A stretch of 64,000 nt of DNA from an uncultured Gammaproteobacteria bacterium (GTDB taxonomy: Bacteria > Patescibacteriota > Microgenomatia > UBA8517): NCBI GenBank assembly GCA_964600575.1, contig CAZRJH010000002.1, positions 53,627-117,626 of the forward strand, in the 5' to 3' direction. Below are positions 1-30,879 of the stretch, one piece after another. The notes under the pieces were generated by a model. It ran no database searches. It saw only the letters and a program-made list of their open reading frames with translations, and was not told the origin of the DNA. A program made the position numbers and the translations under genes. Position 1 is the first letter of the stretch; each line of letters starts with the position of its first letter.

Positions 1-1043
1 ATACCAGGAATAAAGCCTCCGCCTTTTTGCAGATCTTCGGAAATTTTATCCGGATTAAAAACGACGGCGGTATAAAAGTAAGTAAAGCCAAATACCAAGA
101 CGAAATATGTAAGATTGTAAATAACTGATGACGGATTAAACGCAGTAGAGATAGTACGGGCAATATCTGCAACCATGACATTGGGGATATTTGCTAAAGA
201 CTGACCCAAAAGCGAAGGCACCAAAACCAAGGAAACGGCAAAAATTATAGGGATTACTCCAGCCTGGTTGAGTCTTAAAGGTAAATATGAGGTGGCAGCC
301 AGACCGGAATCTGTTCTCCTTTTTGCATAATGGATTGGGATTTGTCTTGCTGCCTCGCTAATAAAGATAACAAGTCCCACAATCACCACTGAAATAGCTA
401 CAAACAAAATCAGCTTGAGAATATCCTGGGATTGCACAGTACTTGCCGATTGCCCCAATATTACTGGCAGTCTTGCAACAATCCCTGTAAAAATAAGAAG
501 CGATACTCCGTTTTTGAATCCGTATTCACTAATTAACTCACCCAGCCATACCGAAAAAACCGTTCCCGCCGTCATGGTAATTACGAGTGAAAGGAGTGCC
601 AAAGGGTCGAGATTTGGTATTACATTTTGACCCTTAAGTAGTGCATACATACCAAAAGCTTGGAGTGCAGCCAAAGGTACAGTTAGAAGTCTTGTGTATT
701 GATTTATTTTTTCCTGGCCGTATTCGCCCTCCTTTTGTAAAGCTTCCAAGGAGGGAATAACATAACCCAAAAGTTGCAAGATAATAGACGCGTTGATATA
801 CGGGTTTAAGCCCAAAGCCAGAACCGAAAAGTTTGCAAGCGTTCCCCCGGAAAAGACATCTAAAAGAGAAAGGAGTGGACTACCCAAAAATAATGCGGTT
901 AAAGTTGACCTGTCGATTCCAGCCGCTGGAATATGTCCTGCTAAACGAAAAACTATCAGAATAATAGCCGTTACTATCAGCTTTTTTCTGATTGCCGGAG
1001 TTGTTACCGCTTTTTTGAAAAAATTAAGAACCGACTGAAACAT
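1..1043 (-). CDS. secY: Preprotein translocase SecY (3' end beyond window start)
   Basis: Reverse-complement from ATG at 1041-1043 reads [44 protein letters not shown]...[17 protein letters not shown]..., matching classic SecY motifs. The ORF track did not list it because it has no stop inside the window. Confidence 0.8.
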
Positions 1044-1094
1044 ATTGAAGTTGAATTATAGCTTAATCATTTTATCAATTCCAGACCTCAAGTG

Positions 1095-1595
1095 CTAATT
1101 TGTTTTTTCCATTACATATTCTATTGCATCTTTTCCGTTACCCATTTTGAAATTTTGTTGACCTTTTACCACAAATCCGAATTTTTTATAAAGATTAACT
1201 GCTGCAATCTGATCTTTGTTAACTGTTAAAGCAACTTTCTTTAAATATTGTTTAGAAGAAAGTTCATCGAGAAGTTTTTGCATTAAAAGTTTAGATATAC
1301 CCCTACCGCGCTCTTCCAAGGGCACATAAACAGAAATAACTGTAGCGGTATCTTTAGACTCTTTTTCCATATAGGCTCCAATCATACCTTTAAGGGTCTT
1401 ATTTTCTTCGGCAAAATAAAGCCAATTTCTATCCGAATTTTCGGCATTTATTAACCTCCTCCTCCATTCTTCTTCGGTATATTTTGCATTATCATCATAC
1501 GAAGCGCCAAAAGCCTGAGGATCTTCTTTTAAAGCTCTGAGTCGTACCTCTTTATACTGCTGCCACCTACTTACAGGAAGTTTTATTATTTCCAT
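1095..1595 (-). CDS. GNAT family N-acetyltransferase
   Basis: 166 aa with a GNAT-like core (…RGRGISKLLMQKLLDEL…VALTVNKDQIAAVNLYKKFGF). Overlaps the upstream ORF by 10 nt, so it is operonic. Confidence 0.55.
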   Translation of the reverse strand: MEIIKLPVSRWQQYKEVRLRALKEDPQAFGASYDDNAKYTEEEWRRRLINAENSDRNWLYFAEENKTLKGMIGAYMEKESKDTATVISVYVPLEERGRGISKLLMQKLLDELSSKQYLKKVALTVNKDQIAAVNLYKKFGFVVKGQQNFKMGNGKDAIEYVMEKTN

Positions 1596-2167
1596 TTCTT
1601 TCCAATCTTTGACTGGGTCAATAGATAAATAGTTGTGTTAAATATTGTCACATAAATCATAAAGCCCGAATTTAGAAAAGTAACTTGCTTAAGCGTTGTT
1701 AAAACTAAAATTTCTCCTATTACGGGCATTAGCCATGGCCAAGCTAGCTCGGTCTCGGGGTGCTTGTATGTTTTAACAAGGGTGGGAATTCCTGCTAAAA
1801 AGTCAGATATGATACTTAGCAATATAGCCAAGTAACCTTCTTTTGTAACCTGCCACAATACAAATCCGCTCAAGGAAAGCGCTCCACAAAGAAAATCGAA
1901 ACCTGTAAGTTTCCAAACCGATTTTTTATTTACAAAAGTTGCCAGGAAAATTAAAAGTGGAAAAAAACCGACACTAAAAGTCATGAGGCTTTCCATTCCG
2001 CCGCCATTTTTGATATTTGCATAAGCAGAAATTAATGGAGGAAGGGCCCACAATATAAAAGAAACTCTATTGGGTTTTATTTTGCCCTTTACAACTTCGA
2101 CTAGATAAACAAACGAACCGACTGCACCAATTAATGTTGCCAGTATAACAATTTTTGAAGCATCCAT
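1586..2167 (-). CDS. Hypothetical polytopic membrane protein
   Basis: 193 aa with several hydrophobic helices and no recognisable motif. Confidence 0.4.
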   Translation of the reverse strand: MDASKIVILATLIGAVGSFVYLVEVVKGKIKPNRVSFILWALPPLISAYANIKNGGGMESLMTFSVGFFPLLIFLATFVNKKSVWKLTGFDFLCGALSLSGFVLWQVTKEGYLAILLSIISDFLAGIPTLVKTYKHPETELAWPWLMPVIGEILVLTTLKQVTFLNSGFMIYVTIFNTTIYLLTQSKIGKKWK

Positions 2168-2183
2168 TTGTTAAAATTATAAC

Positions 2184-3167
2184 TTAGAAGTTAGCAAGTT
2201 CTTCTTCCAATTTTCGTTTAGAATATTTTAATCCTGATATATTTCTTTCCGATCCGTAGTAATCGATTAAATCTATTGAAAGATTGAGTCTGAGTAGGCT
2301 CATCTTTTTGTTAAAATCTCCCGATAATACGGCCTTATTTTGATATCCTTCTAGGAACCATTCCAAAGGAAAAGCTCCTGAATAAAAAAAGTCTAGCCAG
2401 GCAATATCTCTTACAGGGTCTCCTCCTTTGGCGTCTTCGAAATCAATTATCCCCGTTATTACCTTGCCGTCGGTTAAAATATGCTTGGGGCTAAAATCTC
2501 CATGGAGAGTAAAAGGGGTATCAATCTCCATCACACCTCTATTTTTTCTTTGTATATCGAAAGCTTTTTCTAAGACTTCGGGCAAAAGCCCGACAGTTGA
2601 GGCGAAATCAAAAATTCGCGGTTTGTTTTCTTCGAAACGAAATAAAAAATCCGTCCATTTGGAGTAGAAGGCGCTCCTATCCAACGGTCCAAATCTATCT
2701 GTCTCTATGGCGTGAATTTTAGAAAGAATGGCTCCTGAATCGTAAACTATTTTTTTAAGATCTTCCTGAGGTATTGTCTTTAAAATGTCTTTAAGGGGAC
2801 TCCCTTCTATTTTTTCTTCTATACAAAAAGTTAGATCTTCGGTTTCGGTTGAGGCAGATTCTATCAATAAAACTTTAGGGGCAGGCACACCCGCCTGAAG
2901 CGCTAGTCTAATAACCGTTTCTTCCGTTTCAAAATTTTGCGGCCCAAGACGAGAGATTCTAACAATAATATTCTGGGAAGGTGTTTTTGCTTCATATACC
3001 TCGTTTACTTCACCCTGAACTATTTTGCGTAGAGATGAGGCTTCGCTCCCTACCGCTTTAAGAACCATCGAATTAACTAGACTTTCCGGGGTTGTAAAAC
3101 CTTTATGTTTTTCTTCCAAATATTTTTTATATGGGTCTTCCTGATGTGCCACAAACCAGTATAGCAA
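2184..3167 (-). CDS. APH-family phosphotransferase/kinase (aminoglycoside/choline/homoserine-kinase-like fold)
   Basis: 327 aa carrying the Brenner catalytic motif LHGDFSPKHIL and IDFEDAKGGDP (DFG-like), which is the APH/ChoK fold signature. Confidence 0.6.
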   Translation of the reverse strand: MLYWFVAHQEDPYKKYLEEKHKGFTTPESLVNSMVLKAVGSEASSLRKIVQGEVNEVYEAKTPSQNIIVRISRLGPQNFETEETVIRLALQAGVPAPKVLLIESASTETEDLTFCIEEKIEGSPLKDILKTIPQEDLKKIVYDSGAILSKIHAIETDRFGPLDRSAFYSKWTDFLFRFEENKPRIFDFASTVGLLPEVLEKAFDIQRKNRGVMEIDTPFTLHGDFSPKHILTDGKVITGIIDFEDAKGGDPVRDIAWLDFFYSGAFPLEWFLEGYQNKAVLSGDFNKKMSLLRLNLSIDLIDYYGSERNISGLKYSKRKLEEELANF

Positions 3168-3173
3168 TACTTT

Positions 3174-3773
3174 CTATAGTATATTGAGTTCTCGAAGTTG
3201 GTCTCTGAGATTTGAGATTTCGTCACATTTAATTACCGAAAAACCGATACCTTTTGCAGCATCTATATTTGCTTGAGCGTCATCGATAAAAACAACCTCT
3301 TCTGGTTTTACGCCAAGTTTGTCAGAAAAATCCAGAAATGCCTCTTTTGTTGGTTTGGCAAAACCTGTTTCGGCAGATACCAAAATTAGATCTGCAATAT
3401 TTTTGAGATTTCCTTTCTCTCTTATAATTTTTGCTCCTTCTTTTGTGTCGTTGGATAGCACCCCAACTTTGTAACCTTTTGATTTAATCTCCCTGAGTAA
3501 ATCAATCATACCTGTATTAAGTTCTCGGGGAGCATCCACCACACCCATTAGCTGCTCATAGAATTCTGTCTTTTTTAAATCTTTTAGGATAGTTTTCCAA
3601 AAAATCTCTTTGGGCATTTTTCCCGAGTTAAATAACAGGTTGTATTTAAGATAGACCTGTCTAAAATCTGGGTAGGATACACCCAAAACACTGGAGACTT
3701 TTTCGTGAAACTTTTTTGCGGAATCGCCTGATATAACACCCGTATAATCAAAACCGACTGCTTTATATTTCAT
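3174..3773 (-). CDS. HAD-superfamily hydrolase
   Basis: 199 aa with motif I FDYTGV (DxT), motif III K and motif IV VVFIDD, typical of the HAD phosphatase family. Confidence 0.6.
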   Translation of the reverse strand: MKYKAVGFDYTGVISGDSAKKFHEKVSSVLGVSYPDFRQVYLKYNLLFNSGKMPKEIFWKTILKDLKKTEFYEQLMGVVDAPRELNTGMIDLLREIKSKGYKVGVLSNDTKEGAKIIREKGNLKNIADLILVSAETGFAKPTKEAFLDFSDKLGVKPEEVVFIDDAQANIDAAKGIGFSVIKCDEISNLRDQLRELNIL

Positions 3774-3788
3774 AATTGAAGTGTAACA

Positions 3789-4217
3789 CTATATGTTTTG
3801 AAATCTCCCATCTTCATACGGCGGGTAGCAGACTTCAAAAACTGTAAGCGTGGAATCTTCCGAAGCCTTCCATTGCATAGCATCTCCTACTTCTACAACA
3901 ACAGATAAATATTCCGTCGGTTTGTCTTCCACCAAAAACCTTTCTTCTGAACCGTTTTGCCTTAATATCGTTAAAACTCCCGAACCAGAAACATAACCTT
4001 CTATTGTTTTTTCGCCACTCAAGACTCTTTGTAAAGGAGTTTTGCAATCCGGTTCGATTTTTATAATTGCCAAATCCTTCTTTTTATCTGCCCAAAAACT
4101 ATAAACATCACAAGTTACACCTTCGGTAACATTATCAGTTTTTACATAATCCACAGGCAAAATCATTCCTTCAAATTCAAATTTTGTTAAAAAATCGTTT
4201 GGTTTTAGAGTTTCCAT
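3789..4217 (-). CDS. Hypothetical protein, possibly cupin-like beta-barrel
   Basis: 142 aa with beta-rich periodicity (EGYVSGSGVLTI…VVVEVGDAMQWKA) reminiscent of a cupin fold, but no His-motif. The call is tentative. Confidence 0.25.
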   Translation of the reverse strand: METLKPNDFLTKFEFEGMILPVDYVKTDNVTEGVTCDVYSFWADKKKDLAIIKIEPDCKTPLQRVLSGEKTIEGYVSGSGVLTILRQNGSEERFLVEDKPTEYLSVVVEVGDAMQWKASEDSTLTVFEVCYPPYEDGRFQNI

Positions 4218-4218
4218 A

Positions 4219-4695
4219 TTAATGTTTTACATTATCTACCAAAAAACTTCGCAAATGGGTGATTGCACGATCCTTATCTATATTACTTATTCCGTAGGTT
4301 TTTCCGTCCCAATTTATACCAGCCATTGTAGAAAGCGTAGAAACCGATACATCTTCGTTTCCTTGAAAAAATATCGGAACAACACGCTTCTTCTTTTCTA
4401 CTTTTAAAGTTATTGCTTTATAAAGTGCATCTTTCACCGGGCCATCTTCTTTCATTGCAACAGAGGGAATTATTAAAACTGCAGGACAGTTGTCCATTGT
4501 TCTATCAACATCCTCTTCCAAGACACTGCCTTTAATGGAGTCGTTTATATCGATTACAACAAAGCCTTCTTTGGAAAGATCGTCTTTTACACTGGAAGCT
4601 ATCTCCTGCGAGTCTTTAGGGGAGTAAACAAGAAGAAATGCACTTCGCTCTATTTTTTCTTTTTCTTTGCCAACCAGTGTTGGGCTTTCGGTCAT
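4219..4695 (-). CDS. Hypothetical flavodoxin-fold protein, TIR-like/DUF1863-like or nucleoside 2-deoxyribosyltransferase-like
   Basis: 158 aa. The pattern SAFLLVYSPKD…EGFVV(I)D…CPAVLIIPS…KRVVPIFF resembles the TIR beta-alpha layout. The start lies 5 nt after the rplO stop and the stop lies 1 nt before the next ORF. Confidence 0.3.
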   Translation of the reverse strand: MTESPTLVGKEKEKIERSAFLLVYSPKDSQEIASSVKDDLSKEGFVVIDINDSIKGSVLEEDVDRTMDNCPAVLIIPSVAMKEDGPVKDALYKAITLKVEKKKRVVPIFFQGNEDVSVSTLSTMAGINWDGKTYGISNIDKDRAITHLRSFLVDNVKH

Positions 4696-4700
4696 AATGA

Positions 4701-5108
4701 TTATTTAACAACCGATTTGGATGTGGGGACTTTGAATGTAAATTTTTTGGAAGAACTGCCGCCTCCTAAAACTTTTACTCCAAATTTCTTTGCCAAAGTT
4801 GAATCTACTATTTTTTCTTTGATCAAAAGATCTAAAGTGACCTCTGATCCTGTAGGGAGGATGTCTAGATCGGTGAGCGTTAAAAGGACAGGCTTGCCGC
4901 TGCCTTTAAACTTTCCTTTTCCTCTTTGTAGAGGAAGCCGCTTAAGTAAAGATTTTTTAACTTTCATTCCCTCGAAAAGAACACCTATTCCTCCGCGAGA
5001 TTTTTGTCCTTTTTGGCCACGGCTTGATGTGTGACCACCCTTACCTGTTCCAAGGCCTCTTCCGAGTCTTTTTTTTGATTTGGTTACAACTTTTGGTAAT
5101 TTATTCAT
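4701..5108 (-). CDS. rplO: 50S ribosomal protein L15
   Basis: 135 aa, Gly/Lys-rich N-terminus (RLGRGLGTGKGGHTSSRGQKGQKSRGG) typical of L15. Confidence 0.9.
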   Translation of the reverse strand: MNKLPKVVTKSKKRLGRGLGTGKGGHTSSRGQKGQKSRGGIGVLFEGMKVKKSLLKRLPLQRGKGKFKGSGKPVLLTLTDLDILPTGSEVTLDLLIKEKIVDSTLAKKFGVKVLGGGSSSKKFTFKVPTSKSVVK

Positions 5109-5110
5109 GG

Positions 5111-5617
5111 TTATTTAGTTTCTGCCTTTGGTTCTTTTTTCTTCATCTCTACAAGATGTGAGACTTGTTCCAAAGCTTTAAGAGTTGCGTAAACGTTAGA
5201 AATTTTATTTTTGGTTCCCAAAATTTTCCCTACAGCATCTCTTATACCCGCCGCTTCCAAAACAACTCTCATTGGTCCGCCTGCGATAATACCCGATCCC
5301 GGAGGAGCCGGTTTCAAAAGAATTTTTGCTGCTGAATATTTTTCGCTAACCGAATAAGGGATGGTTGTTCCGGTTAAAGGAACATCTATTAGTTTTCTTT
5401 TTGCGGCTTCAATCGACTTTCTAATAGCGTTTCTTACATCGTGAGCTTTAGCCATACCAACCCCTACTCTTCCTTTCCTGTTACCCACAACTATTAATGC
5501 CGAAAACCTCATTGTGTTTCCACCTTTGGTTTTTTTGGAGATCCTATTAATTTGAACAACTGTCTCCTCGTATTCTTTTGGTGCTTGGTTTGCGTAGCTT
5601 TTATTAAAATTTGCCAT
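5111..5617 (-). CDS. rpsE: 30S ribosomal protein S5
   Basis: 168 aa matching S5 (…GGRVMRFSALIVVGNRKGRVGVGMAKA…). It is directly followed by rplO with no L30 gene between. Confidence 0.9.
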   Translation of the reverse strand: MANFNKSYANQAPKEYEETVVQINRISKKTKGGNTMRFSALIVVGNRKGRVGVGMAKAHDVRNAIRKSIEAAKRKLIDVPLTGTTIPYSVSEKYSAAKILLKPAPPGSGIIAGGPMRVVLEAAGIRDAVGKILGTKNKISNVYATLKALEQVSHLVEMKKKEPKAETK

Positions 5618-5621
5618 GTTT

Positions 5622-5981
5622 TTAGAAATCTAATCCCCCTTTTCTGGCACCGTCTGCCAGAGCCTTTATTCTTCCGTGATAAATAAATCCGTTCCTATCA
5701 AAAATTACTTTTTTAACCTTTTTGGCAACCCCCAGCTTTGCCAACTCTTCTCCAACAGATTCTGCAACCTGAGATTTGGTCATTTTATCCGATTTTTTGA
5801 GTTTTAGATCGGAAAAAGATGCCAAAGTAACTGCTTTAATATCATCAATAAGTTGTCCGTAGATGTGTGAATTAGACCTGAACACAGAAAGACGGGGTCT
5901 GTCCGATGTGCCTATAATTTTAGACCTCACACTCGTCTTTCTTCTTTCGTATCTTTTGGATTTAAGTTGAATTATTTTCAT
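5622..5981 (-). CDS. rplR: 50S ribosomal protein L18
   Basis: 119 aa, L18 family (…RPRLSVFRSNSHIYGQLIDD…). Confidence 0.9.
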   Translation of the reverse strand: MKIIQLKSKRYERRKTSVRSKIIGTSDRPRLSVFRSNSHIYGQLIDDIKAVTLASFSDLKLKKSDKMTKSQVAESVGEELAKLGVAKKVKKVIFDRNGFIYHGRIKALADGARKGGLDF

Positions 5982-7756: not shown

Positions 7757-8071
7757 TTATTTGTTGTCTATTTCTTTTCCGCATTTTCGGCAAACTCTCA
7801 CTTTATCTTTACCTGCAAATTTAAAACCAACTCTGGTAATCTTTTTGCATTTTGGACAAACCAAGGCTATTTTACCAAAGCCTAAAGCTCTCGGAATTTC
7901 GTAAATTCCGCCTTTTACATCTCCAAAACCTTTAACGTGTTTTTTGTACAAGTTGACTCCAGGCACGACGGCTTTGGATTCTTCGGGATAGATTTTTTCG
8001 ATCTTTCCCTCGCGGCCTTTGTCTTTACCTGCTGTTATTTTGACTGTGTCTCCTAGTTTTAATTTGAGCAT
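7757..8071 (-). CDS. rplX: 50S ribosomal protein L24
   Basis: 104 aa with a KOW motif (KLGDTVKITAGKDKGREGKI). Confidence 0.9.
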   Translation of the reverse strand: MLKLKLGDTVKITAGKDKGREGKIEKIYPEESKAVVPGVNLYKKHVKGFGDVKGGIYEIPRALGFGKIALVCPKCKKITRVGFKFAGKDKVRVCRKCGKEIDNK

Positions 8072-8077
8072 ATTTTT

Positions 8078-8443
8078 TTAGATAACCTCTCTGGCTAAAG
8101 ATGCGATCTTATTGTAACCTGCGTCTTTAACTTCACGGGCAACGGGACCTAAAATTCTAGTACCTCTTGGGAGTCCTTGTTTATCGATTACTACTCCCGC
8201 GTTATCGTCGAATCTTACATAACTACCGTCTTTTCTTCCTACTTCTTTTCTGGTTCTGACTATTAGAACCTTAACTTTCTCATGATCTTGGACCACTCCC
8301 GTAGGATCTGCGCCCTTGACTACACAAAGCACAACATCTCCCAGGGTGGCAACTTTACCAACTCTGCCCGGGACACCAATAATTTGGAGTCTTTTTGCTC
8401 CGCTGTTATCTGCAGGGTTAAGCATGGTTCTAAGCTGTACCAT
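8078..8443 (-). CDS. rplN: 50S ribosomal protein L14
   Basis: 121 aa, L14 (MVQLRTMLNPADNSGAKRLQIIGV…). Confidence 0.9.
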   Translation of the reverse strand: MVQLRTMLNPADNSGAKRLQIIGVPGRVGKVATLGDVVLCVVKGADPTGVVQDHEKVKVLIVRTRKEVGRKDGSYVRFDDNAGVVIDKQGLPRGTRILGPVAREVKDAGYNKIASLAREVI

Positions 8444-8689
8444 TTACTTTTTTCCCCCTTTCTCTTTAACCACTTCTAACACTTTCCATTTTTTGGATTT
8501 TGAGTAGGGCTTACTTGCCGTAAATTTAACCATGTCTCCTACTTGGACATTAAGTTCATCGTGCACTTGATATTTTGTGTCACGCCTAAATCTTTTTTGG
8601 TATAAAGGATGAACTATTACTCTTTCTACAGCTATTGTTGCCGTGTTTGTCATTTTTTTGCCGATTACTTTTCCTTTAAAAATTTTCAT
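8444..8689 (-). CDS. rpsQ: 30S ribosomal protein S17
   Basis: 81 aa, S17 OB-fold (…GKVIGKKMTNTATIAVERVIVHPLYQK…). Confidence 0.85.
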   Translation of the reverse strand: MKIFKGKVIGKKMTNTATIAVERVIVHPLYQKRFRRDTKYQVHDELNVQVGDMVKFTASKPYSKSKKWKVLEVVKEKGGKK

Positions 8690-8691
8690 AA

Positions 8692-8919
8692 TTATTTGGT
8701 TCCAACCTCCTTCAAAGCTTCCACTATCTCTTTTTGTTTAACCAATGTCAAAATTTGTGCAATATCACGTCGTAGATTTGCGACTACTTTAAGATTCTTT
8801 TCTTTTCCTCCTGCAATTTCCATCTGTTTTTTAGCAGCTTCGTTAGTTTTGGCGGAAACCATCTTAAGCAAATCTTTAACTGATTTTGATTTTAAATCTG
8901 TGTAATCTTTCTTTTTCAT
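8692..8919 (-). CDS. rpmC: 50S ribosomal protein L29
   Basis: 75 aa helical Lys-rich protein, sitting in the canonical rplP-rpmC-rpsQ order. Confidence 0.8.
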   Translation of the reverse strand: MKKKDYTDLKSKSVKDLLKMVSAKTNEAAKKQMEIAGGKEKNLKVVANLRRDIAQILTLVKQKEIVEALKEVGTK

Positions 8920-8920
8920 A

Positions 8921-9331
8921 TTAGTCTTCTCTTGTTACAATCTTTACGTCTATGGGCAACTTTGCTGATGCTCTTTTGAAAGCTGTTCTGACAATTTCTT
9001 CTGCTGCTCCTGCTACTTCGAAAAGAATCATTCCAGGTTTAACAACTGCAACATAAGTTGAAATATCTCCCTTTCCTCCACCCATTCTTTTTCCTGCCGG
9101 CCTGCTTGTGATGGGCTTGTCCGGAAAAATTCTAATCCAAACACGGCCACCTCTTTTAAGGTTGTGGGTTATGCTTCTTCTGGCTGCTTCTATTTGGGCC
9201 GATGTTATCCAAGAAACCTCCTGTGCCTTTAGTGCAAACTCGCCAAAAGCCATTTTGGCACCTCGGGTTGCAAGACCTCGCCTTCGACCTCTAAATTCTT
9301 TAACAAATTTTCTTCTTTTTGGTTGCATCAT
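8921..9331 (-). CDS. rplP: 50S ribosomal protein L16
   Basis: 136 aa, L16 (MMQPKRRKFVKEFRGRRRG…). Confidence 0.9.
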   Translation of the reverse strand: MMQPKRRKFVKEFRGRRRGLATRGAKMAFGEFALKAQEVSWITSAQIEAARRSITHNLKRGGRVWIRIFPDKPITSRPAGKRMGGGKGDISTYVAVVKPGMILFEVAGAAEEIVRTAFKRASAKLPIDVKIVTRED

Positions 9332-9336
9332 AATTA

Positions 9337-9993
9337 TTAGTTATTTTCTTGTTTTTTATGAATCCAAACTTTTACTCCTACGTAACCTCTCTTTAAAGAG
9401 GCGGGCATTTGTGCATAGTCAACTGTTTCTCTAAGTGTTTGCGTTGGGACTGATCCTACATGAAACTTTTCGACTCTGCTGATTTCCGCTCCGTTAATAC
9501 GACCTGCCAAAACAACCTTGGCACCTAAAGCTCCCGCAGACATGACTCTTTCCAAAGCCTTCTGAACCGCGCGTCTGTGGGGTATTCTTCTCTCCATTTC
9601 CCCTACAATTCTGCCGGCCACCAAATGTGCAGACAATTCGGCATTTTTGACTTCGTTAATCCTTATATCTATTTTGAGATCCTTAACTTTCTTATTTCTG
9701 ACTTCGTTGATTATAGACATTACAAATTTTTTGACGTCTTCTATCCCCGTTCCTCCGCGGCCGATAACTACACCCGGCCTACTTACGGTTATTCCGATAA
9801 CCATACTTTTGGGCAATCTTTCGATTTCTACTGTTGTTACCCCCGCAAGTTTGAGTCTATCCATTAGACCCTTGCGGATTTTGATATCCTCCACCAAAAA
9901 GTCTTTTAGACTTTTGTTATCGGCAAACCACCTTGATTTCCAAGGAAGGAAACTACCGATTCTTATACCGATTGGATTAACCTTTTGTCCCAT
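9337..9993 (-). CDS. rpsC: 30S ribosomal protein S3
   Basis: 218 aa, S3 with a KH domain (MGQKVNPIGIRIG…). Confidence 0.9.
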   Translation of the reverse strand: MGQKVNPIGIRIGSFLPWKSRWFADNKSLKDFLVEDIKIRKGLMDRLKLAGVTTVEIERLPKSMVIGITVSRPGVVIGRGGTGIEDVKKFVMSIINEVRNKKVKDLKIDIRINEVKNAELSAHLVAGRIVGEMERRIPHRRAVQKALERVMSAGALGAKVVLAGRINGAEISRVEKFHVGSVPTQTLRETVDYAQMPASLKRGYVGVKVWIHKKQENN

Positions 9994-12456: not shown

Positions 12457-13182
12457 TTATTCCGTTTTAGGAGCGGATCCTGCTGTTTTTGCTCCTTCGC
12501 CTTCGGTAACTTGCGCAACTGTTTCGTGTTCCAAATCTTTAAGGCTTCCTGCTTTGATTTTTTTAATAGAAAGAAGTGTTCCGGTACTTCCGGGCACCTG
12601 ACCAGAAATTTCTACCTCGCCTGAATCCGCATTAACGGAAACTACATGCAAGTTTTTGACTGTAACCTGATCTCCACCCATTCTTCCTGCCATTCTTTTA
12701 CCTCTGTAAACTCTACCAGGAGTAGTGGTTTGTCCGATTGAACCCGGAGCACGCTCTCTATCGGATTGTCCGTGTGTTCTTGGACCACCTCTAAACCCGT
12801 GCTTTTTGACAACTCCAGCGAAACCTTTGCCCTTAGAAACTCCTGTAACCGCTACAACATCCCCAGGAGAAAAAATATCGGCGACCTTTATAGTGTCGCC
12901 TACTTTAAACTCCGGTTCGCTGTCTAATCTAATTTCTCTGAGATGTCTTGGGAAGGAATTTTCTTTTGAACTTGATTTGAGGTGTCCTTGGAGTGCTTTG
13001 GAGGTTACTTTTGTGCGTCTTGTACCAAATCCGATTTGTACTGCCCAGTAACCGTCTTTGTCCATCTTCTTAATTTGGGTCACGGTACAGGGGCCCGCTA
13101 TTACCTTGGTAACGGGAATTCTAAAACCTTCTATAAAGGTCTGACTATTTTTCAGCTTTGAACCTAATATTGTATTAATCAT
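12457..13182 (-). CDS. rplC: 50S ribosomal protein L3
   Basis: 241 aa, L3 (…GFAGVVKKHGFRGGPRTHGQSDRERAPGSIG…) with a C-terminal extension. Confidence 0.9.
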   Translation of the reverse strand: MINTILGSKLKNSQTFIEGFRIPVTKVIAGPCTVTQIKKMDKDGYWAVQIGFGTRRTKVTSKALQGHLKSSSKENSFPRHLREIRLDSEPEFKVGDTIKVADIFSPGDVVAVTGVSKGKGFAGVVKKHGFRGGPRTHGQSDRERAPGSIGQTTTPGRVYRGKRMAGRMGGDQVTVKNLHVVSVNADSGEVEISGQVPGSTGTLLSIKKIKAGSLKDLEHETVAQVTEGEGAKTAGSAPKTE

Positions 13183-13421: not shown

Positions 13422-13793
13422 TTAGCTTTTCAAGATGACCTTGACGCGCCGCCAGGTGAGCAAGATCGGGTTTTCTTTCTGGAAAGCGATCTTTCCATAA
13501 ACCGACTCGAAGGCGTCACGGATCAGTGGTGAAAGCTCATCCCAGCTGTGAGTGGCGAGTTTGTAAACCCGTAATTCACCTTTTGAGATTCGAACGCTAT
13601 TCACGCCGTGGATGCCCATGACCAGAACAGCGAGTTGTGAGCCTTTCTCACCAACCTCTTTTTGCTCTTTCTCGTCCAACGGGGCAGTGCGAACATAACT
13701 CCCGTGCGAGAGATCAAAATCCGTCAAAAACTGTTTTCCGGGATTGAGGTCGGAAAGTTCCCATTCATTTACGCGTGGTAAACCGTTTGTCAT
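13422..13793 (-). CDS. Hypothetical protein (123 aa), compositionally foreign
   Basis: The ORF is intact and its GC is visibly higher (~50%) than the ~40% host background. It has its own strong terminator and no recognisable motif. Confidence 0.45.
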   Translation of the reverse strand: MTNGLPRVNEWELSDLNPGKQFLTDFDLSHGSYVRTAPLDEKEQKEVGEKGSQLAVLVMGIHGVNSVRISKGELRVYKLATHSWDELSPLIRDAFESVYGKIAFQKENPILLTWRRVKVILKS

Positions 13794-14162: not shown

Positions 14163-14591
14163 CTAGCGTATTTTTACGCCCGAAGTGTCAATATCGGCAA
14201 TAGTAAAGCTAAACAACCTGGTCATATTCTTATCCGCAACCAAGAAACTTCCCCTACCCGACAAAATGTCCAAGTGAGTTCTTTCCTCGGTATTAATACT
14301 TCCGCCAACACTAGTGGTTGCATATTTAGCACCTTCTACTTTGCTTAGATGCCTGGCGGCCTTAAGGACGAGAACAGGATCTTCCGTTTCTATACGGAGA
14401 GTAGTTAGGGGTAGTTTAACAATCCAATTCATTTCCAAGGCAGTCTTAATTGCTTTCTCTGTTTGTTTTCCGTATTCAGTAGCATCCGCATCACGATTTT
14501 CGCTTGCAGCTTTTTGCCAATTTTCCAATGAAGAAACTAATTCTACTTCAAGTTTGTCTATATCTACTTCACTTTTTGTAGTCTCTGTCAT
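14163..14591 (-). CDS. Hypothetical protein (142 aa) translationally coupled to rpsJ
   Basis: Its ATG lies 3 nt after the S10 stop codon (TAA-agt-ATG) and its GC is host-like. Weak nucleotidyltransferase-like motif VGGSx9DIL with the second acidic residue missing; no confident family assignment. Confidence 0.5.
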   Translation of the reverse strand: MTETTKSEVDIDKLEVELVSSLENWQKAASENRDADATEYGKQTEKAIKTALEMNWIVKLPLTTLRIETEDPVLVLKAARHLSKVEGAKYATTSVGGSINTEERTHLDILSGRGSFLVADKNMTRLFSFTIADIDTSGVKIR

Positions 14592-14594
14592 ACT

Positions 14595-14900
14595 TTACAT
14601 CTTAATCTCGATAGAAACTCCCGCGGGGAGATCCAGATTGCCCAAAGAATCTACAGTTCTTGGGGTTGGGTCAATAATATCTATAAGTCTTTTGTGCGTT
14701 AGAACTTCAAAATGTTCTTGGGCATCTTTGTCCGTAAAAGGAGATTCTTTGATTGCCATTACGGAGCGGTTTGTGGGAAGAGGAATAGGACCGACAATTT
14801 TTGCACCTGAAGATAGCGCGGTATCTATAATTTTACCGGCTGCCTCATCTAAGACCCTGTGGTCATAACTTTTAAGTTTGACTCTTAGTCTAATTGCCAT
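14595..14900 (-). CDS. rpsJ: 30S ribosomal protein S10
   Basis: 101 aa, S10 ([24 protein letters not shown]…). Confidence 0.9.
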
Positions 14901-14939: not shown

Positions 14940-16130
14940 TTATACAAGTACCTTGGTGATAACTCCTGCACCTACTGTGTGTCCGCCTTCTCTGATTGCA
15001 AATCTAAGACCCTCCTCGAGCGCTACCGGTTGAATAAGTTTAACTTTCATTTTTGCGTTGTCTCCAGGCATAACCATTTCGATTCCTTCTGGTAGAGTTG
15101 CTTCTCCTGTTACATCTGCAGTTCTAATATAGAACTGGGGTTTGTAACCTGTGAAGAAAGGTGTGTGTCTTCCACCTTCTTCTTTGGAAAGAATATAAAC
15201 TTCTGCTTCGAATTCTGTGTGAGGGGTAACGCTGCCTGATTTAGCAAGAACTTGACCTCTTTCGACTTGATCTTTTTCGACACCTCTAAGAAGAACTCCT
15301 ACGTTATCTCCTGCCATAGCTTCATCAAGTGTCTTTCTAAACATTTCAAGACCTGTGACTATAGATTTTGCTGTGTCTTTAATACCGACAATTTCGATTT
15401 CTTCGTTAACTTTGATAACTCCGCGCTCTACTCTACCTGTGACTACTGTTCCGCGTCCAGAAATTGTGAATACGTCTTCGACAGGCATTAAGAAAGGTTT
15501 GTCTGTTTGTCTTACGGGATCGGGAATGTAGTTATCAACTGCATCCATAAGTTCTGTAATTTTCTTTTCTGCTTCTGCGTCACCTTCTACAGCTTTTAGA
15601 GCGGATCCTCTGATTACAGGAACTTCGTCTCCCGGATATTCATATTTCTTAAGAAGTTCTCTTACATCTGCTTCGACCAAATCAATGATTTCGGGGTCAT
15701 CTACCGTGTCACATTTGTTGAGGAAAACTACGAGTGCAGGAACATTAACTTGTCTTGCCAAAATAACGTGCTCTCTAGTTTGAGGCATAGGTCCGTCTGC
15801 TGCGGAAACTACCAAAATAGCTCCGTCCATTTGAGCTGCACCGGTAATCATGTTCTTGATGTAGTCAGCATGACCAGGAGCATCGATGTGTGCATAATGT
15901 CTTTTTGCTGTTTGATATTCTTGATGAGAAAGATTAATTGTAACTCCTCTTTCTTTTTCTTCGGGAGCGGAATCGATGTCTTCGTATTTCTTAGCTGTGG
16001 CGAGTCCTTGCTTGGCAAGAACCATGGTAATTGCGGAGGTTAGAGTTGTCTTTCCGTGATCAACGTGACCAATAGTACCAATGTTTACATGGGGTTTGCT
16101 GCGATCAAATTTTTGTTTTGCGTCTGCCAT
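14940..16130 (-). CDS. tuf: Elongation factor Tu
   Basis: 396 aa with [10 protein letters not shown] and the DAPGHADY G-domain motifs. Confidence 0.95.
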
Positions 16131-16250: not shown

Positions 16251-17048
16251 CTACTTTTTAGTCGAACTGGCTGAAAAATTCACGGCCGTAACAATTAAAG
16301 CCACTATTGTAAAAGTGAACGGGAAAGCTTTCCAACCAACATAAGTATTCAAAGCTTCTAGAATTAAAGGAAGTGTCATGGAAAAGACCGCAACTTTGTA
16401 GGACTCTTTGTAGGTTAGGCTTTTTTTAAGTACTTTTGCCAAAAGCAAAACCAAAAGTGCCAGGAAAAATCCGTACACTAGCCTGAAAGATTGCAGTATA
16501 TAAAGGGTTACCAAGGCAAACACCATTATTAACGGACCAAGATATGGTATCCAGGGAGAAATCTTTGAACCAAAACTGTTAACCAGCTCTTTGTTAATCG
16601 TCATATCTTTCATTTGATAGAAACTCTGGCTTTTAATGGCCCCTCCGCTTTCTTCGCTAAAAACCGAATCTTTAGTCACCCAAACCGGCACCCCGTATTT
16701 TTTGAACTGTTCTACTGAATACGGAGTCTTTGTATCTATAACTGCAAATTTATTATTTGTTTTATCCGCTAAGAAATATGGCTCTTTTACGTTTGTAGAC
16801 AAATTGCCCGACTTGAAAGTAAGTACGAGATTGTTGGGATATGTGTCTATAAGTTCAACAACCGTGGTTCTTATTTTTCCTGAAAATGCGAATAAAAATT
16901 CCGGCATACTTTTGCCAAACATCAGAAGTTCAACTAAAAGCAAAAGCAAGAAAAAATATCCCAAAACTGGGCCTATCGTCATCTTTGGAATCTGTGAATA
17001 AAAGGCCGGTGAATAAATGCTTGCAGCAATTTTCTTGAAGAAATTCAT
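16251..17048 (-). CDS. Hypothetical membrane protein (265 aa) inserted between fusA and tuf
   Basis: TM helices at the N- and C-termini with a large middle domain and no motif. It starts 41 nt after the fusA stop. Confidence 0.5.
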   Translation of the reverse strand: MNFFKKIAASIYSPAFYSQIPKMTIGPVLGYFFLLLLLVELLMFGKSMPEFLFAFSGKIRTTVVELIDTYPNNLVLTFKSGNLSTNVKEPYFLADKTNNKFAVIDTKTPYSVEQFKKYGVPVWVTKDSVFSEESGGAIKSQSFYQMKDMTINKELVNSFGSKISPWIPYLGPLIMVFALVTLYILQSFRLVYGFFLALLVLLLAKVLKKSLTYKESYKVAVFSMTLPLILEALNTYVGWKAFPFTFTIVALIVTAVNFSASSTKK

Positions 17049-17089: not shown

Positions 17090-19258
17090 TTAGCCTCTGG
17101 CCATAGTAACCTTGCCTGCTTTTTCGATAATTTGAGCCGCAATGTGGGAAGGCACCTCGTCGTAATGGGAGGGCTCGACATATGCTCTGGCACGACCTTG
17201 AGTAAGTGACCTAAGCTTTGTTGCATAACCTGAAAGCTCTGCAAGTGGTACGCTTCCGTAAATAACCGTTTCCCCTGCCTTTTCTTCGGATCCCGAAATT
17301 TGAGCGCGCTTACTGGAAAGGTCCCCAATTACGTCACCCATGAATTCCCCTGGGGTAAAGACCTCGATCTTCATTATCGGCTCCAAAAGTCCCGGTTCAC
17401 ATTTTTTGAATGTGTCTTCCAGGGCCATAGAACCTGCGATCTTAAAGGCCATTTCGCTGGAGTCTACTTCGTGGAAAGATCCGTCAAAAACAACAACTCT
17501 CATATCTACCATTGGAAAACCCGCCAATACTCCATTTTCCATCTTTTCTTTGACACCTTTTTCGATGGGGCCAATATATTCTTGGGGAATAGCTCCACCT
17601 TTGATTTCGCTTTTGAATTCAAACCCTTCACCCCTGCCCAAGGGTTCAATGCGCAACAAACAGTGTCCGTATTGTCCGCGGCCTCCGGTTTGTCTGATGT
17701 ACTTACCTTCGCCTTCGCCGATCTTTTTAACTGTTTCTTTGTAAGCAACTTGTGGTGCACCTGTATTGGCGACAACATTAAACTCTCTCTTCATACGATC
17801 TACCAAGACTTCCAGTTGCAACTCTCCCATTCCCGAAATAATTGTTTGTCCTGTTTCGGCATTGCTTTTGATACGGAATGTAGGGTCTTCGTCTGAAAGT
17901 TTAGAAAGTGCAATTCCCATCTTTTCTTGATCGGATTTGGTTGCAGGTTCGATAGCAAGAGATATAACCGGTTCCGGGAACGAAATAGATTCTAGTGTCA
18001 AAGGATGATCCGAATCACAAACTGTGTCACCTGTGGAGGTGTCTTTAACTCCAACGACTGCTACAATTTCCCCTGCAAAAGCCTCTTCTATAAGCTCCCT
18101 TTGGTCGGCGTGCAACAAAACCAGTTTCCCGATTCTTTCGTATTTTTGTTTTGTGGTGTTATAAACTTCTTGACCTGTTTTAATGGAACCCGAATAAACT
18201 CTCATATAAACCAAGCGTCCGACATGGGGATCGGTAATCACTTTGAAAGCCAAAGCCGATAGCGGAGCTTCGTTCTTTCTTTCTCTTGTTTCGTGTTCTC
18301 CTGTTTTGAGATTTGTTCCTGTAACAGGAGGGAGATCTATCGGGGAAGGCAAGAACTCCACTACTCCATCTAATAGAAGTTGAGATTCAGCTGTTCTGTT
18401 GTCTCCACCAAATACGGGGAAGAACTTACCTGCAATAACACCTTTTCTGATTGCTCTTTTAAGCGTTATTTCATCCGGCTCCTTGCCTTCGAGGAACATA
18501 TTCAAAGCTTCGTCGTCGAACTCTGAAACTTTTTCTATAAGCTCGGCTCGATATTTGTTGGCCATATCTGCAACTTCTGCAGGAATCTCACCCTCTGTGA
18601 GTTCGTGATCTTCGATTGCCTTGAATGTTAAAGCTTTCATTGTTATCAAATTAACAACACCTCTGTGGTCATGTTCCTGACCAATAGGTACAACAACAGG
18701 GGATGCATTGGCTCTAAGTCTTTCCCTGATTGATTTAATCGAGGATTCGAAGTCTGCACCAATAAGATTTAATTTATTAAGAACACAGATTCTCGGTACA
18801 TTATATTTATCTGCCTGTCTCCACACTGTTTCCGACTGGGATTCTACCCCTGTTCTACCGTCGAAGACCATTAATGCGCCGTCTAAAACCCTCAAGCTTC
18901 TTTCTACCTCGGCCGTAAAGTCAATGTGACCCGGTGTGTCTATAAGGTTGATTCTGTAATGGCCTGCCTCGACAGAGGAATCTTTTTTGAGATCCCAGAA
19001 GGCTGTGATTGCAGCGGAAACAATGGTAATTCCACGCTCTCTTTCTTGGGCCATCCAGTCTGTGACTGTTGTTCCGTCATCAACACTTCCCAACTTATAT
19101 GTTCTACCAGTCTCGTAAAGAAGTCTTTCGGTGGTTGTAGTTTTGCCTGCATCAATATGAGCAATAATCCCTATATTTCTGATTTTCTCATAGGAAACAA
19201 CACGGTCTTTGGTGGCCGTGACAACAATACTAGCTTTTTTCTTTGCAACTTCTGCCAT
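17090..19258 (-). CDS. fusA: Elongation factor G
   Basis: 722 aa with AHIDAGKTTTTE and DTPGHIDF motifs plus EF-G domains IV and V. Confidence 0.95.
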   Translation of the reverse strand: MAEVAKKKASIVVTATKDRVVSYEKIRNIGIIAHIDAGKTTTTERLLYETGRTYKLGSVDDGTTVTDWMAQERERGITIVSAAITAFWDLKKDSSVEAGHYRINLIDTPGHIDFTAEVERSLRVLDGALMVFDGRTGVESQSETVWRQADKYNVPRICVLNKLNLIGADFESSIKSIRERLRANASPVVVPIGQEHDHRGVVNLITMKALTFKAIEDHELTEGEIPAEVADMANKYRAELIEKVSEFDDEALNMFLEGKEPDEITLKRAIRKGVIAGKFFPVFGGDNRTAESQLLLDGVVEFLPSPIDLPPVTGTNLKTGEHETRERKNEAPLSALAFKVITDPHVGRLVYMRVYSGSIKTGQEVYNTTKQKYERIGKLVLLHADQRELIEEAFAGEIVAVVGVKDTSTGDTVCDSDHPLTLESISFPEPVISLAIEPATKSDQEKMGIALSKLSDEDPTFRIKSNAETGQTIISGMGELQLEVLVDRMKREFNVVANTGAPQVAYKETVKKIGEGEGKYIRQTGGRGQYGHCLLRIEPLGRGEGFEFKSEIKGGAIPQEYIGPIEKGVKEKMENGVLAGFPMVDMRVVVFDGSFHEVDSSEMAFKIAGSMALEDTFKKCEPGLLEPIMKIEVFTPGEFMGDVIGDLSSKRAQISGSEEKAGETVIYGSVPLAELSGYATKLRSLTQGRARAYVEPSHYDEVPSHIAAQIIEKAGKVTMARG

Positions 19259-19347: not shown

Positions 19348-20127
19348 TCACCATGACTCAAGAGGTGTGCTTGCAACCACCCTTGACCCAACGTGAATCT
19401 GGTGTTCAAAAAACTCTAATTGCTTTTTACTTAGTTTGATTTTAGCTTCGGCATTTGCATTTGAAAGGTTAGTCTTTAGTTGTTCTTCCAGACTATCTGA
19501 AACATTGTTCCAGGTGGACCTGAGGTTTGCTTGCTCCTGAAGCGTAAATTTATATCCCTTATCAAATTTTTTGTGATGAAGATCCCTTAAAGACTCTCTA
19601 AGTTCTTTTGATATTTTTAGGCATTCCTGACCTTCCAAAGCCTCTTTTTGAGACGATAATATTTGGAGGAGGGATTCAAAAAAGGGCCTGTTTTTCGGGT
19701 TTTTGAGAGCTTCGGCTATTGTAAAATCCTGTGTTTCCGAAGGATCGCCTTTATCTGGTAGTAAATTCCAAACAGTGTTTGACACATCGGAAACATCTGA
19801 CCTCCATAGGTTAAATATGTCACGATCCATTATTATTGGTTGACCATAAGCAGCATGTGCCTTGTTTGCTTGTTCTTTTAGATGCGGCTCGATAAAAGAA
19901 CCGGGGAGTTGAGATGTTACAAAATCACTCCATAACAAATTACCCGCAAGCGCCTGTTCCAAAGCAGCATGGGTTGTAATCAGGCGTTTTACAATCCACA
20001 TTTGCGGATAGTGAGAATTTGCCCAATAATCGGCTTTCATTACTTTTTCTAAAGGAGTTTCGATACGAGCGTTCCCTTCTTTTACCAAAGCTGGGTCTGC
20101 ACTGAATGGAGAGTCCGGTCCGGACAT
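19348..20127 (-). CDS. Hypothetical soluble protein (259 aa) inserted between rpsG and fusA
   Basis: Intact ORF starting 11 nt after the rpsG stop. No TM helix and no known motif. Confidence 0.45.
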   Translation of the reverse strand: MSGPDSPFSADPALVKEGNARIETPLEKVMKADYWANSHYPQMWIVKRLITTHAALEQALAGNLLWSDFVTSQLPGSFIEPHLKEQANKAHAAYGQPIIMDRDIFNLWRSDVSDVSNTVWNLLPDKGDPSETQDFTIAEALKNPKNRPFFESLLQILSSQKEALEGQECLKISKELRESLRDLHHKKFDKGYKFTLQEQANLRSTWNNVSDSLEEQLKTNLSNANAEAKIKLSKKQLEFFEHQIHVGSRVVASTPLESW

Positions 20128-24889: not shown

Positions 24890-28279
<3,390 letters not shown>

Positions 28280-30806: not shown

Positions 30807-30879
30807 AATTATCAAATTATACAAAATTCATCCATTGGTGAACTTTGTTCACACAAAATTATTAGTAGAATTTTATATG

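Follow-up and report, generated by a model that had tools for sequence, protein, structure and literature searches.

Six non-ribosomal genes separate rplO from secY in the 64,000-nucleotide (nt) stretch of DNA analysed here (the window; positions 53,627 to 117,626 of contig CAZRJH010000002.1, assembly GCA_964600575.1). We think it probable that these genes are one inherited version of an accessory-gene hotspot that occupies the rplO-secY junction across a whole clade of bacteria and is free of mobile genetic elements (MGEs). A first-pass annotation of the window had described the block as a single module, horizontally acquired or lineage-specific, that hitch-hikes on the spc operon. We found that the block is indeed non-ribosomal and lineage-specific, runs on the same strand as rplO and begins 5 nt past the rplO stop codon. 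However, the locus is not one fixed module; instead, it is hypervariable throughout the clade, the cargo of 22 genomes comprising no fewer than 68 gene families. Nor would the block simply ride inside the spc operon, since secY has a conserved promoter-like element of its own, which would place the block at a de facto operon boundary.

Six intact genes lie between rplO and secY

According to the list of open reading frames (ORFs) of the window, the minus strand carries rpsE, rplO, six compact and intact ORFs and secY, in this order (lengths in amino acids, aa):

5111-5617, minus strand: rpsE (S5), 2 nt upstream of rplO, with no rpmD (L30) between
4701-5108, minus strand: rplO (L15), left anchor of the hotspot; ORF call with a weak Ribosomal_L27A match
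4219-4695, minus strand: ORF1, TIR_2-domain protein, 158 aa (Pfam TIR_2)
3789-4217, minus strand: ORF2, cupin-fold protein, 142 aa (no Pfam match; structural matches)
3174-3773, minus strand: ORF3, HAD-IA family hydrolase, 199 aa (PF00702, TIGR01509)
2184-3167, minus strand: ORF4, APH-family small-molecule kinase, 322-327 aa (PF01636)
1586-2167, minus strand: ORF5, protein with a seven-transmembrane (7-TM) SWEET/PQ-loop (cystinosin-like) fold (no Pfam match; structural matches)
1095-1595, minus strand: ORF6, GNAT N-acetyltransferase, 166 aa (PF00583)
1044-1094, minus strand: spacer with the secY-proximal promoter-like element (TATAAT at 1055-1060)
1-1043, minus strand: secY, N-terminal 347 codons, right anchor of the hotspot (PF00344, E 2.6e-82); runs off the window

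The genes are spaced by 5 nt (rplO-ORF1), 1 nt (ORF1-ORF2), 15 nt (ORF2-ORF3), 6 or 21 nt (ORF3-ORF4) and 16 nt (ORF4-ORF5); ORF5 and ORF6 overlap by 10 nt, and 51 nt separate ORF6 from secY. The start of ORF4 is a TTG at 3167, and the gene caller favours a GTG at 3152. The gaps and overlap of the six genes match the figures of the first-pass annotation, and its six family assignments hold; four of them score above Pfam or NCBIfam thresholds, while the cupin and the 7-TM protein are supported by fold.

The rplO product is 60-86% identical to the L15 proteins of more than 70 Woesebacteria loci, in which rpsE always precedes it. Since rpsE and rplO are only 2 nt apart in the window, L30 is absent, as had been noticed before. 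The loss of L30 is a known trait of the entire Candidate Phyla Radiation (CPR; bioRxiv 10.1101/2022.01.07.475337) and is unrelated to the six-gene block.

An identical arrangement, with a full secY followed by adk-map-infA-rpsM-rpsK-rpsD-rpoA-rplQ, was recovered in the Logan assembly of run SRR16481186 (locus L001; numbers with the prefix L denote loci of the SecY scan described below and of other samples). Because this run and the window may derive from one set of raw data, contigs from other samples provide the stronger check. The block occurs at the same place in contigs of six other samples (L003, L091, L092, L094, L095 and L096), and together with the Logan assembly these rule out an assembly chimera.

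The junction is expanded across one clade of Woesebacteria

A scan with SecY, limited to one genome per species, gave 80 loci with SecY identities of 56-89%. The specifically named loci are Candidatus Woesebacteria or Microgenomates, and the rest carry generic or evidently mislabelled titles of metagenome-assembled genomes (MAGs); the window genome belongs to Candidatus Woesebacteria (Microgenomates, CPR). We measured the rplO-secY gap after locating rpsE, rplO and secY in each locus, and built a neighbour-joining tree of 75 taxa from a concatenated alignment of eight flanking proteins (1953 columns). In this tree, the hotspot clade comes out as monophyletic, with 23 genomes and support from 99 of 100 bootstraps.

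Within the clade, the gap exceeds 300 nt in 18 of the 22 members where it is measurable, with a median of 2.1 kb and a range from 64 nt to 9.2 kb, compared to only 2 of 52 Woesebacteria outside the clade. Locus L029, which is outside the tree, has a gap of more than 10 kb. As a control, we considered 12 consecutive junctions from rplF (L6) to rplQ (L17) and scored a junction as expanded when it exceeded 300 nt. Each of the 11 control junctions was expanded in 0-2 of 22 clade members and in 0-6 of about 50 other Woesebacteria. In more than 70 loci, the interval is delimited by the core genes rplO and secY, and its content turns over faster than that of the neighbouring intervals (18 of 22 expanded and 68 families, against 0-2 of 22 for the controls). 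The comparison of rplO-secY spacing in relatives, which the first-pass annotation had proposed, therefore reveals an expansion that is clade-wide and yet variable in content.

Cargo is gained, lost and exchanged without recognisable mobile-element genes

The expanded gaps encode 111 proteins that fall into 68 families, 46 of which are singletons. NUDIX, GNAT, staphylococcal-nuclease-like (SNase), TPR, MazG-like, DUF5680 and Trp-repressor-like helix-turn-helix proteins recur. The remaining cargo includes Ham1/ITPase, HD, DHH-DHHA2, cytidine deaminase, nucleoside 2-deoxyribosyltransferase-like proteins, GDSL and alpha/beta hydrolases and glyoxalase, as well as S-adenosylmethionine-dependent methyltransferases, rRNA adenine dimethylase, NTP_transf_6, peptide deformylase, peptidase S51, an EamA transporter, PIN and HEPN. 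Opposite-strand genes are common among the cargo, and some of them directly adjoin rplO or secY. Families common to several species are 50-80% identical, and their position and orientation shift from genome to genome, which fits a common pool that is reshuffled by gain, loss and inversion.

Closely related genomes differ sharply at the junction. L017 has a gap of 1857 nt and L019 one of 135 nt, while their flanks are 93-96% identical; one end of the insertion or deletion lies about 45 nt ahead of the rplO stop codon, and the other about 95 nt upstream of secY. Likewise, the close relatives L016 and L008 have gaps of 530 nt and 104 nt. Another pair, L094 and L092, shows exchange at the first slot of the block. 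The two are almost one organism at this locus: the L15 proteins agree completely (100% identity), and the cupin, NUDIX and transporter proteins share 96-97% identity. Between the TIR proteins, in contrast, identity drops to 55%, and synonymous differences are saturated. In a sliding window along the DNA, identity is 100% in rpsE and 93-100% in rplO, falls to 52-65% in the TIR gene and recovers to 97-100% once about 150 nt of the cupin gene have been passed, which places one breakpoint shortly downstream of rplO, about 40 nt inside the TIR gene, and the other within the cupin gene. The drop in identity is abrupt and confined to the TIR gene. It reflects allele replacement by homologous recombination, and this pair is the one clear case of homologous recombination in the flanks. 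Deeply divergent TIR alleles thus circulate in the clade.

On the other hand, we found no integrase or transposase among the roughly 60 cargo proteins of relatives that were scanned, or in the block of the window, and no tRNA, Rfam family or boundary repeat in the window; an integrative element was rejected on these grounds. The GC content of the block (0.34-0.385) and its GC content at third codon positions (GC3; 0.26-0.32) resemble those of the flanking ribosomal-protein genes (0.39 and 0.29-0.30, respectively), so that composition gives no signal of recent horizontal transfer. Of the two origins first proposed for the block, lineage specificity is therefore upheld, while recent acquisition is not, given the native composition and the lack of an integrase, tRNA and flanking repeats.

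Two loci deserve separate mention. In L077, a distant Woesebacterium and one of the two expanded genomes outside the clade, the rplO-secY gap (7953-9948) contains a complete type II restriction-modification pair, consisting of an EcoO109I-like endonuclease and a MerR-fused C5 cytosine methyltransferase. In L023, an ORF with a HEPN domain and an unannotated ORF of 130 aa stand side by side on one strand (5012-5828) inside the 9.2-kb version of the hotspot, and the two may form a HEPN-MNT toxin-antitoxin pair.

secY carries its own conserved promoter-like element

Every member of the clade has the pattern CTG-N19-TATAAT, which ends 10-11 nt before the secY ATG. Its commonest form within the 30 nt upstream of secY is TTAGGATC-N4-TTGGGATATAAT, i.e. 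usually CTGTnTTTAGGATCAnnTTTGGGATATAAT. The TATAAT of the window (1055-1060) stands 11 nt before the secY ATG, and in the window and its sisters CTG and TATAAT are kept at the same spacing, although the sequence between them has diverged. When loci totalling 1.69 Mb were searched for fuzzy matches to the element, 16 of 24 lay exactly at the secY position, and no further copy was found elsewhere in the window. The motif is thus essentially restricted to the region upstream of secY, which rules out a general promoter consensus. Genomes in which rplO and secY overlap (L026, L027) lack it, and it is present in two genomes outside the clade with a slightly opened junction (L030, L033).

In several genomes, a convergent gene lies directly upstream of secY, and where cargo on the opposite strand adjoins secY in this way, secY must have its own promoter. 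We infer that secY is probably transcribed independently through the conserved TATAAT-containing element, a putative promoter that would give a near-leaderless secY mRNA because TATAAT lies only 10-11 nt from the ATG. At the other end of the block, rplO and ORF1 are 5 nt apart and no convincing terminator was seen between them, so read-through from rplO into the block is plausible.

No Shine-Dalgarno sequence is visible at any gene start in the region 1000-5700, the ribosomal genes included. A TATAAT-like hexamer stands 8-14 nt before several start codons of this region, for example TTATAAT in the spacer at 2168-2183, 8 nt before the ATG of the transporter gene. These hexamers hint at leaderless-type starts, or they may be chance occurrences in AT-rich DNA.

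The block of the window is inherited within one sublineage

The same gene order, rplO-TIR-cupin-(HAD)-(NUDIX)-APH-transporter-GNAT-secY, is found in five related lineages, which differ in the genes in parentheses. Between cupin and APH, the window has HAD only, L003, L091/L092 and L094 have NUDIX only, and L096 has both HAD and NUDIX. This distribution indicates that the ancestral block probably had seven genes in the order TIR-cupin-HAD-NUDIX-APH-transporter-GNAT, and that NUDIX was probably lost in the window. Relatives with the same genes as a normal syntenic feature would have spoken against a special insertion according to the first-pass annotation; synteny does hold in the five lineages, while the housekeeping annotation that was to accompany it does not.

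Pairwise comparisons of orthologues gave ratios of nonsynonymous to synonymous substitution rates (dN/dS) of 0.03-0.16 for the cupin, NUDIX, APH, transporter and GNAT genes, with synonymous sites at or near saturation in the comparisons with the window. These ratios, together with the matching GC and GC3, point to a block that is native, inherited and functional. On this evidence, the six-gene block appears to be a version of the hotspot that became fixed in one sublineage and has since been inherited vertically under purifying selection.

Proteins encoded by the block

The TIR-like protein matches TIR_2 (PF13676) with 38 bits, above the gathering score of 28 (E 2.8e-9). In a set of 5.8 billion proteins, its family amounts to no more than 5 clusters, each of which sits at this locus. 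The catalytic glutamate appears to be replaced: E642 of SARM1 aligns to an invariant A94 in a profile alignment, and MAFFT with canonical TIR_2 proteins puts the position at A90, with no acidic residue at either site. Both alignments are weak, so we hold with moderate confidence that the protein lacks the catalytic glutamate of the WxxxE-type motif. PADLOC gave no match for three TIR alleles, and no associated effector (ThsA or other) was found at the locus, where the neighbours are metabolic-type enzymes. A known defence system was therefore rejected; the only PADLOC matches were a marginal one for the GNAT (E 0.0019) and one of the L003 NUDIX protein to the candidate PDC-S07. Remote TIR-like relatives number 43 in 1.8 billion representatives. 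The nearest of them, six proteins of about 210 aa (P0190, P0195, P0197, P0202, P0214 and P0226), combine an N-terminal zinc-ribbon-like segment with four cysteines (CxxC...CxxC) with a glutamate-less TIR-like domain; P0190 lies on a 1.3-kb contig with no ribosomal-protein gene as neighbour.

ORF2 has the double-stranded beta-helix fold of cupins and belongs to a family restricted to Patescibacteria. Its best structural matches are CapF and the phosphomannose and phosphoglucose isomerases. The HxH...E/H metal motifs are missing: no histidine is invariant across 35 members of the family, in which Y39, Q63, E73, E128 and R138 are conserved. A role in methionine salvage (MtnK/MtnC/ARD) was dropped, as the cupin has no histidine ligands and no ARD match.

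ORF3 is a HAD hydrolase of subfamily IA (PF00702, 76 bits; TIGR01509, 47 bits with a cut-off of 29.4) with the residues of the four motifs in place (D9, S107, K140 and D164-D165). Its best matches in the Protein Data Bank (PDB) are beta-phosphoglucomutases (about 1e-10). The gene occurs only in the window and L096, and the sister lineages have NUDIX instead. HAD phosphatases use the residue two positions after the motif I aspartate, itself an aspartate, as general acid/base. In ORF3, motif I (residues 9-13) reads DYTGV, with threonine at this position in place of the aspartate, and the L096 orthologue has the same sequence (window positions 3747-3761 are codons 5-9). We take DYTGV to resemble the DKTGT of P-type ATPases.

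ORF4 belongs to the APH fold family (PF01636, 81.5 bits) and has the catalytic HxD motif as well as the Mg-binding D motif. Four orthologues share the sequences HGDFSPKH and IDFED, with a change of D to E in L020. Its nearest solved relatives are APH(4)-Ia (3.6e-14) and APH(2'')-Id (about 5e-9). It scores far below the NCBIfam resistance cut-offs for APH(4) (38.3 vs 725 bits), APH(2'') (35.9 vs 600) and APH(3') (25 vs 205).

ORF5 has the 7-TM (3+1+3) fold, with cystinosin and SWEET as best structural matches, and is probably a transporter of a small solute. Its sequence identity to SWEET/PQ-loop transporters is 6-13%, and no Pfam match to MtN3_slv or PQ-loop was obtained at E <=0.1. A PnuC-type transporter was not supported, given these best structural matches. 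Searching the PDB directly with the sequences of the membrane, cupin and TIR proteins yielded nothing informative. The transporter family (P0001-P0120 among the members listed) is unannotated and contains at least 643 clusters. Beyond the nearest relatives, identity is 54-62% among the members listed, and the few source names are Chloroflexota, Bacteroidales and CPR. Homologues of ORF5 are often found beside genes for beta-lactamases, alpha/beta-hydrolases, glyoxalases or erythromycin esterases. Homologues of the transporter and of the cupin elsewhere lie in mixed accessory neighbourhoods with no constant partner.

ORF6 matches PF00583 with 63 bits, and its best NCBIfam model is RimI (52.7 bits, under the cut-off of 86.4). 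By these scores, it is classified as a generic GNAT only, and not as RimI, the S18 alanine N-acetyltransferase. GNAT orthologues adjoin secY in L003, L094 and L012.

Origin of the hotspot and competing explanations

The tree, with its single well-supported hotspot clade, indicates that the spc operon was opened once between rplO and secY at the base of the clade, and we propose that secY then acquired, or had exposed, its own conserved promoter-like element. Freed from read-through from rplO, secY would have turned the gap into a permissive site and a de facto operon edge; such edges would accept new genes, whose integration inside operons is noted to be rare (PMC5635113). The cargo would then change by gain, loss, inversion and exchange, chiefly through homologous recombination with the highly conserved flanks as anchors and without mobile-element machinery, and the block of the window would probably be co-transcribed with rplO. 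The cargo most likely consists of independent small enzymes and one transporter, with predicted roles in small-molecule modification, nucleotide and sugar-phosphate housekeeping, salvage or detoxification. The families represented are kinases of small molecules, phosphatases, pyrophosphatases, acetyltransferases and the small-solute transporter. Independent genes are favoured over one pathway because these families are also found singly, beside other partners, in relatives, and because the homologues of the transporter and the cupin lie in mixed neighbourhoods.

Several points weigh against this explanation. All relatives are MAGs, and their cargo ORFs are longest-ORF calls. About one-third of the scanned cargo proteins have no Pfam match and could conceal mobility or defence functions. 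Part of the turnover may be relocation within the genome and not acquisition, since some of the relatives' cargo looks like housekeeping genes (peptide deformylase, Ham1, rRNA adenine dimethylase). A recombination mechanism is directly documented by one allele swap and one indel pair only. A recognisable canonical -35 hexamer was not found upstream of secY. Finally, the compact spacing, the 10-nt overlap and the order kept in five lineages could mean that the block is one functional operon.

This last point leads to a salvage operon, which we regard as unlikely. In such an operon, the transporter would import a sugar, amino sugar or nucleoside, the APH kinase would retain it by phosphorylation, HAD, NUDIX or both would process the phosphorylated or nucleotide-linked form, the cupin would isomerise or epimerise it, and the GNAT would N-acetylate it. 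The APH family includes the anomeric sugar kinases NahK and AmgK, and CPR bacteria rely on salvage. The order kept in five lineages with gaps of 1-16 nt and one overlap, the purifying selection on all members, the sugar or nucleotide-sugar enzymes among the structural matches of the cupin and the sugar-phosphate enzymes among the best matches of the HAD protein are all consistent with a shared pathway. However, members of the block are found with other partners, with the cupin beside GNATs and MazG in L013, APH beside NTP_transf_6 in L020 and a lone GNAT beside secY in L012, and the transporter and cupin homologues keep no constant partner elsewhere. Moreover, HAD and NUDIX are interchangeable or dispensable, and no protein reaches a specific equivalog model.

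A more adaptive version of the hotspot, which we consider unlikely, would make the junction an 'expression dock', that is, a selected, integrase-free gap where two ultra-conserved recombination anchors and strong ribosomal-protein transcription from upstream let a symbiont with a reduced genome capture foreign or relocated genes and express them at once. The leaderless-type promoter of secY would be the enabling feature. A TIR-like protein without catalytic function, acting in conflict or as a sensor, would hold the first slot, co-expressed with the ribosome and maintained as divergent alleles by balancing selection.

It is rather improbable that the block is a resistance island against ribosome-targeting antibiotics, co-expressed with the ribosome, whose APH and GNAT proteins modify aminoglycoside-like drugs. 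Among solved structures, the kinase is closest to genuine aminoglycoside kinases, and the GNAT weakly matches AAC(3)-I and streptothricin acetyltransferases, but every resistance model is far under its cut-off (38 vs 725 bits for APH(4)-Ia), and the best model of the GNAT is RimI, which is also sub-cut-off. Cargo of relatives such as RrnaAD, NTP_transf_6, glyoxalase/bleomycin-resistance proteins, an extra peptide deformylase and an EamA exporter could be read in the same way, as could the beta-lactamase and erythromycin-esterase genes near transporter homologues in other phyla. On the other hand, RrnaAD may be the housekeeping KsgA, and most cargo (NUDIX, SNase, TPR, MazG, Ham1) is unrelated to antibiotics.

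We give an equally low chance to the block, or at least ORF1, being a TIR-type (Thoeris-like) anti-phage or conflict system in a defence island. Deep allelic divergence and swapping are typical of conflict genes, ORF1 has a TIR_2 domain and weakly matches a retron-TIR model, and restriction-modification (L077), HEPN and PIN genes occur at the same junction elsewhere. The PDC-S07 match of the L003 NUDIX protein points in the same direction. However, neither the three TIR alleles nor the proteins of the window match PADLOC, bar the marginal GNAT, and the alanine at the catalytic position is invariant. No ThsA-like or other effector partner is present, and the other five genes are slow-evolving and of metabolic type.

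A recently integrated mobile element or island of foreign DNA is highly improbable: the transporter is 54-62% identical to proteins of Chloroflexota, Bacteroidales and Amesbacteria, suggesting past transfer between phyla, and a serine recombinase lies near one transporter homologue in Amesbacteria, but the locus has no integrase, transposase, tRNA or flanking repeat, its GC and GC3 are indistinguishable from those of its neighbours, and the block is common to five lineages with which it has co-diverged, its synonymous sites being near or at saturation relative to the window.

Relation to known systems and significance

Hotspots between core genes that are free of MGEs and show recombination in the flanking core genes have been described (Oliveira, Touchon, Cury & Rocha 2017, PMC5635113). 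The hotspot at rplO-secY resembles them in the concentration of turnover between two core genes, the lack of recognisable mobile-element genes and the recombination in the flank (the TIR swap). Unlike them, it lies inside what is normally a single ribosomal-protein operon (spc), is coupled to a conserved new promoter-like element of the essential gene downstream, and plays out between species of an uncultured CPR clade and not within the pangenome of one species. Insertions into the ribosomal-protein super-cluster are known from Gammaproteobacteria and Bacilli, where the detailed examples are mostly between operons and secY has left spc in one species (PMC8046335). In those cases too, a few unrelated genes were inserted among collinear translation genes and later lost in some descendants. 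In contrast, the break reported here is at rplO-secY, persists throughout a clade without disconnection and is hypervariable rather than a single insertion.

The proteins likewise depart from their nearest characterised counterparts. The TIR-like protein is similar to the TIR NADases and signal synthases (SARM1, Thoeris ThsB) in matching TIR_2 above the Pfam threshold and in its rapid allelic diversification, as in immune genes; unlike them, it has alanine at the position of the catalytic glutamate, no effector partner, no match to a defence model, and a family of five clusters confined to one locus. The kinase shares the APH fold, the conserved HxD and DFE-type motifs and its best similarity among solved structures with APH(4)-Ia and APH(2''), but falls an order of magnitude under the curated resistance cut-offs. 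ORF5 differs from SWEET/PQ-loop proteins (cystinosin) by its 6-13% identity, the lack of a Pfam MtN3/PQ-loop match, and its membership of an unannotated bacterial family of more than 600 clusters. As a lead only, the rplO-secY adjacency of Mycobacterium tuberculosis is likewise broken up by several non-ribosomal genes, a GNAT among them, though that set is presumably fixed and not hypervariable.

The loss of L30, MGE-free hotspots and insertions in the ribosomal-protein super-cluster are already known. A persistent, clade-wide and hypervariable rplO-secY hotspot with a secY-specific promoter-like element and a recombining TIR-like first slot is a combination that we did not find described. Ribosomal-protein gene order, including rplO-secY, is treated as nearly immutable, and here a whole clade has made this junction a local accessory-gene hotspot. 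The evidence suggests that the split junction is tolerated through an independent secY promoter. The locus offers a handle on genome plasticity and recombination in CPR bacteria, and it lies on a contig of the kind used by binning and phylogenomics; annotation pipelines and checks of marker synteny should not flag such contigs as chimeric. Three families appear worth characterising, namely the widespread, unannotated 7-TM SWEET-fold family, the histidine-less cupin of Patescibacteria and the hypervariable glutamate-less TIR-like protein.

Other split junctions in the window

Further conserved gene clusters of the window, also on the minus strand, are interrupted. The str operon is split twice, by a DUF1189 protein (16251-17048) between fusA (17090-19258) and tuf (14940-16130), and by a 259-aa protein without Pfam match (19348-20127) between rpsG (20139-20618) and fusA. 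The rpoB gene (24890-28279) is preceded by a YceG-like gene (28379-29350), upstream of which lie a 225-aa protein without Pfam match (29666-30343), a 136-aa ORF (30414-30824) and a sortase (30880-31569). Neither rplJ nor rplL was recognised among the scanned ORFs upstream of rpoB, which did not include the 136-aa ORF at 30414-30824.

Between rpsJ (14595-14900) and rplC (12457-13182), a junction that is also tight as a rule, stand two non-ribosomal ORFs, at 13422-13793 and 14163-14591; one encodes 123 aa with a weak Nfu_N match and the other 142 aa with no Pfam match. The S10-L3 gap varies from about 70 nt to more than 1.3 kb across other Woesebacteria loci, and S10-L3 may be a second, older variable junction.

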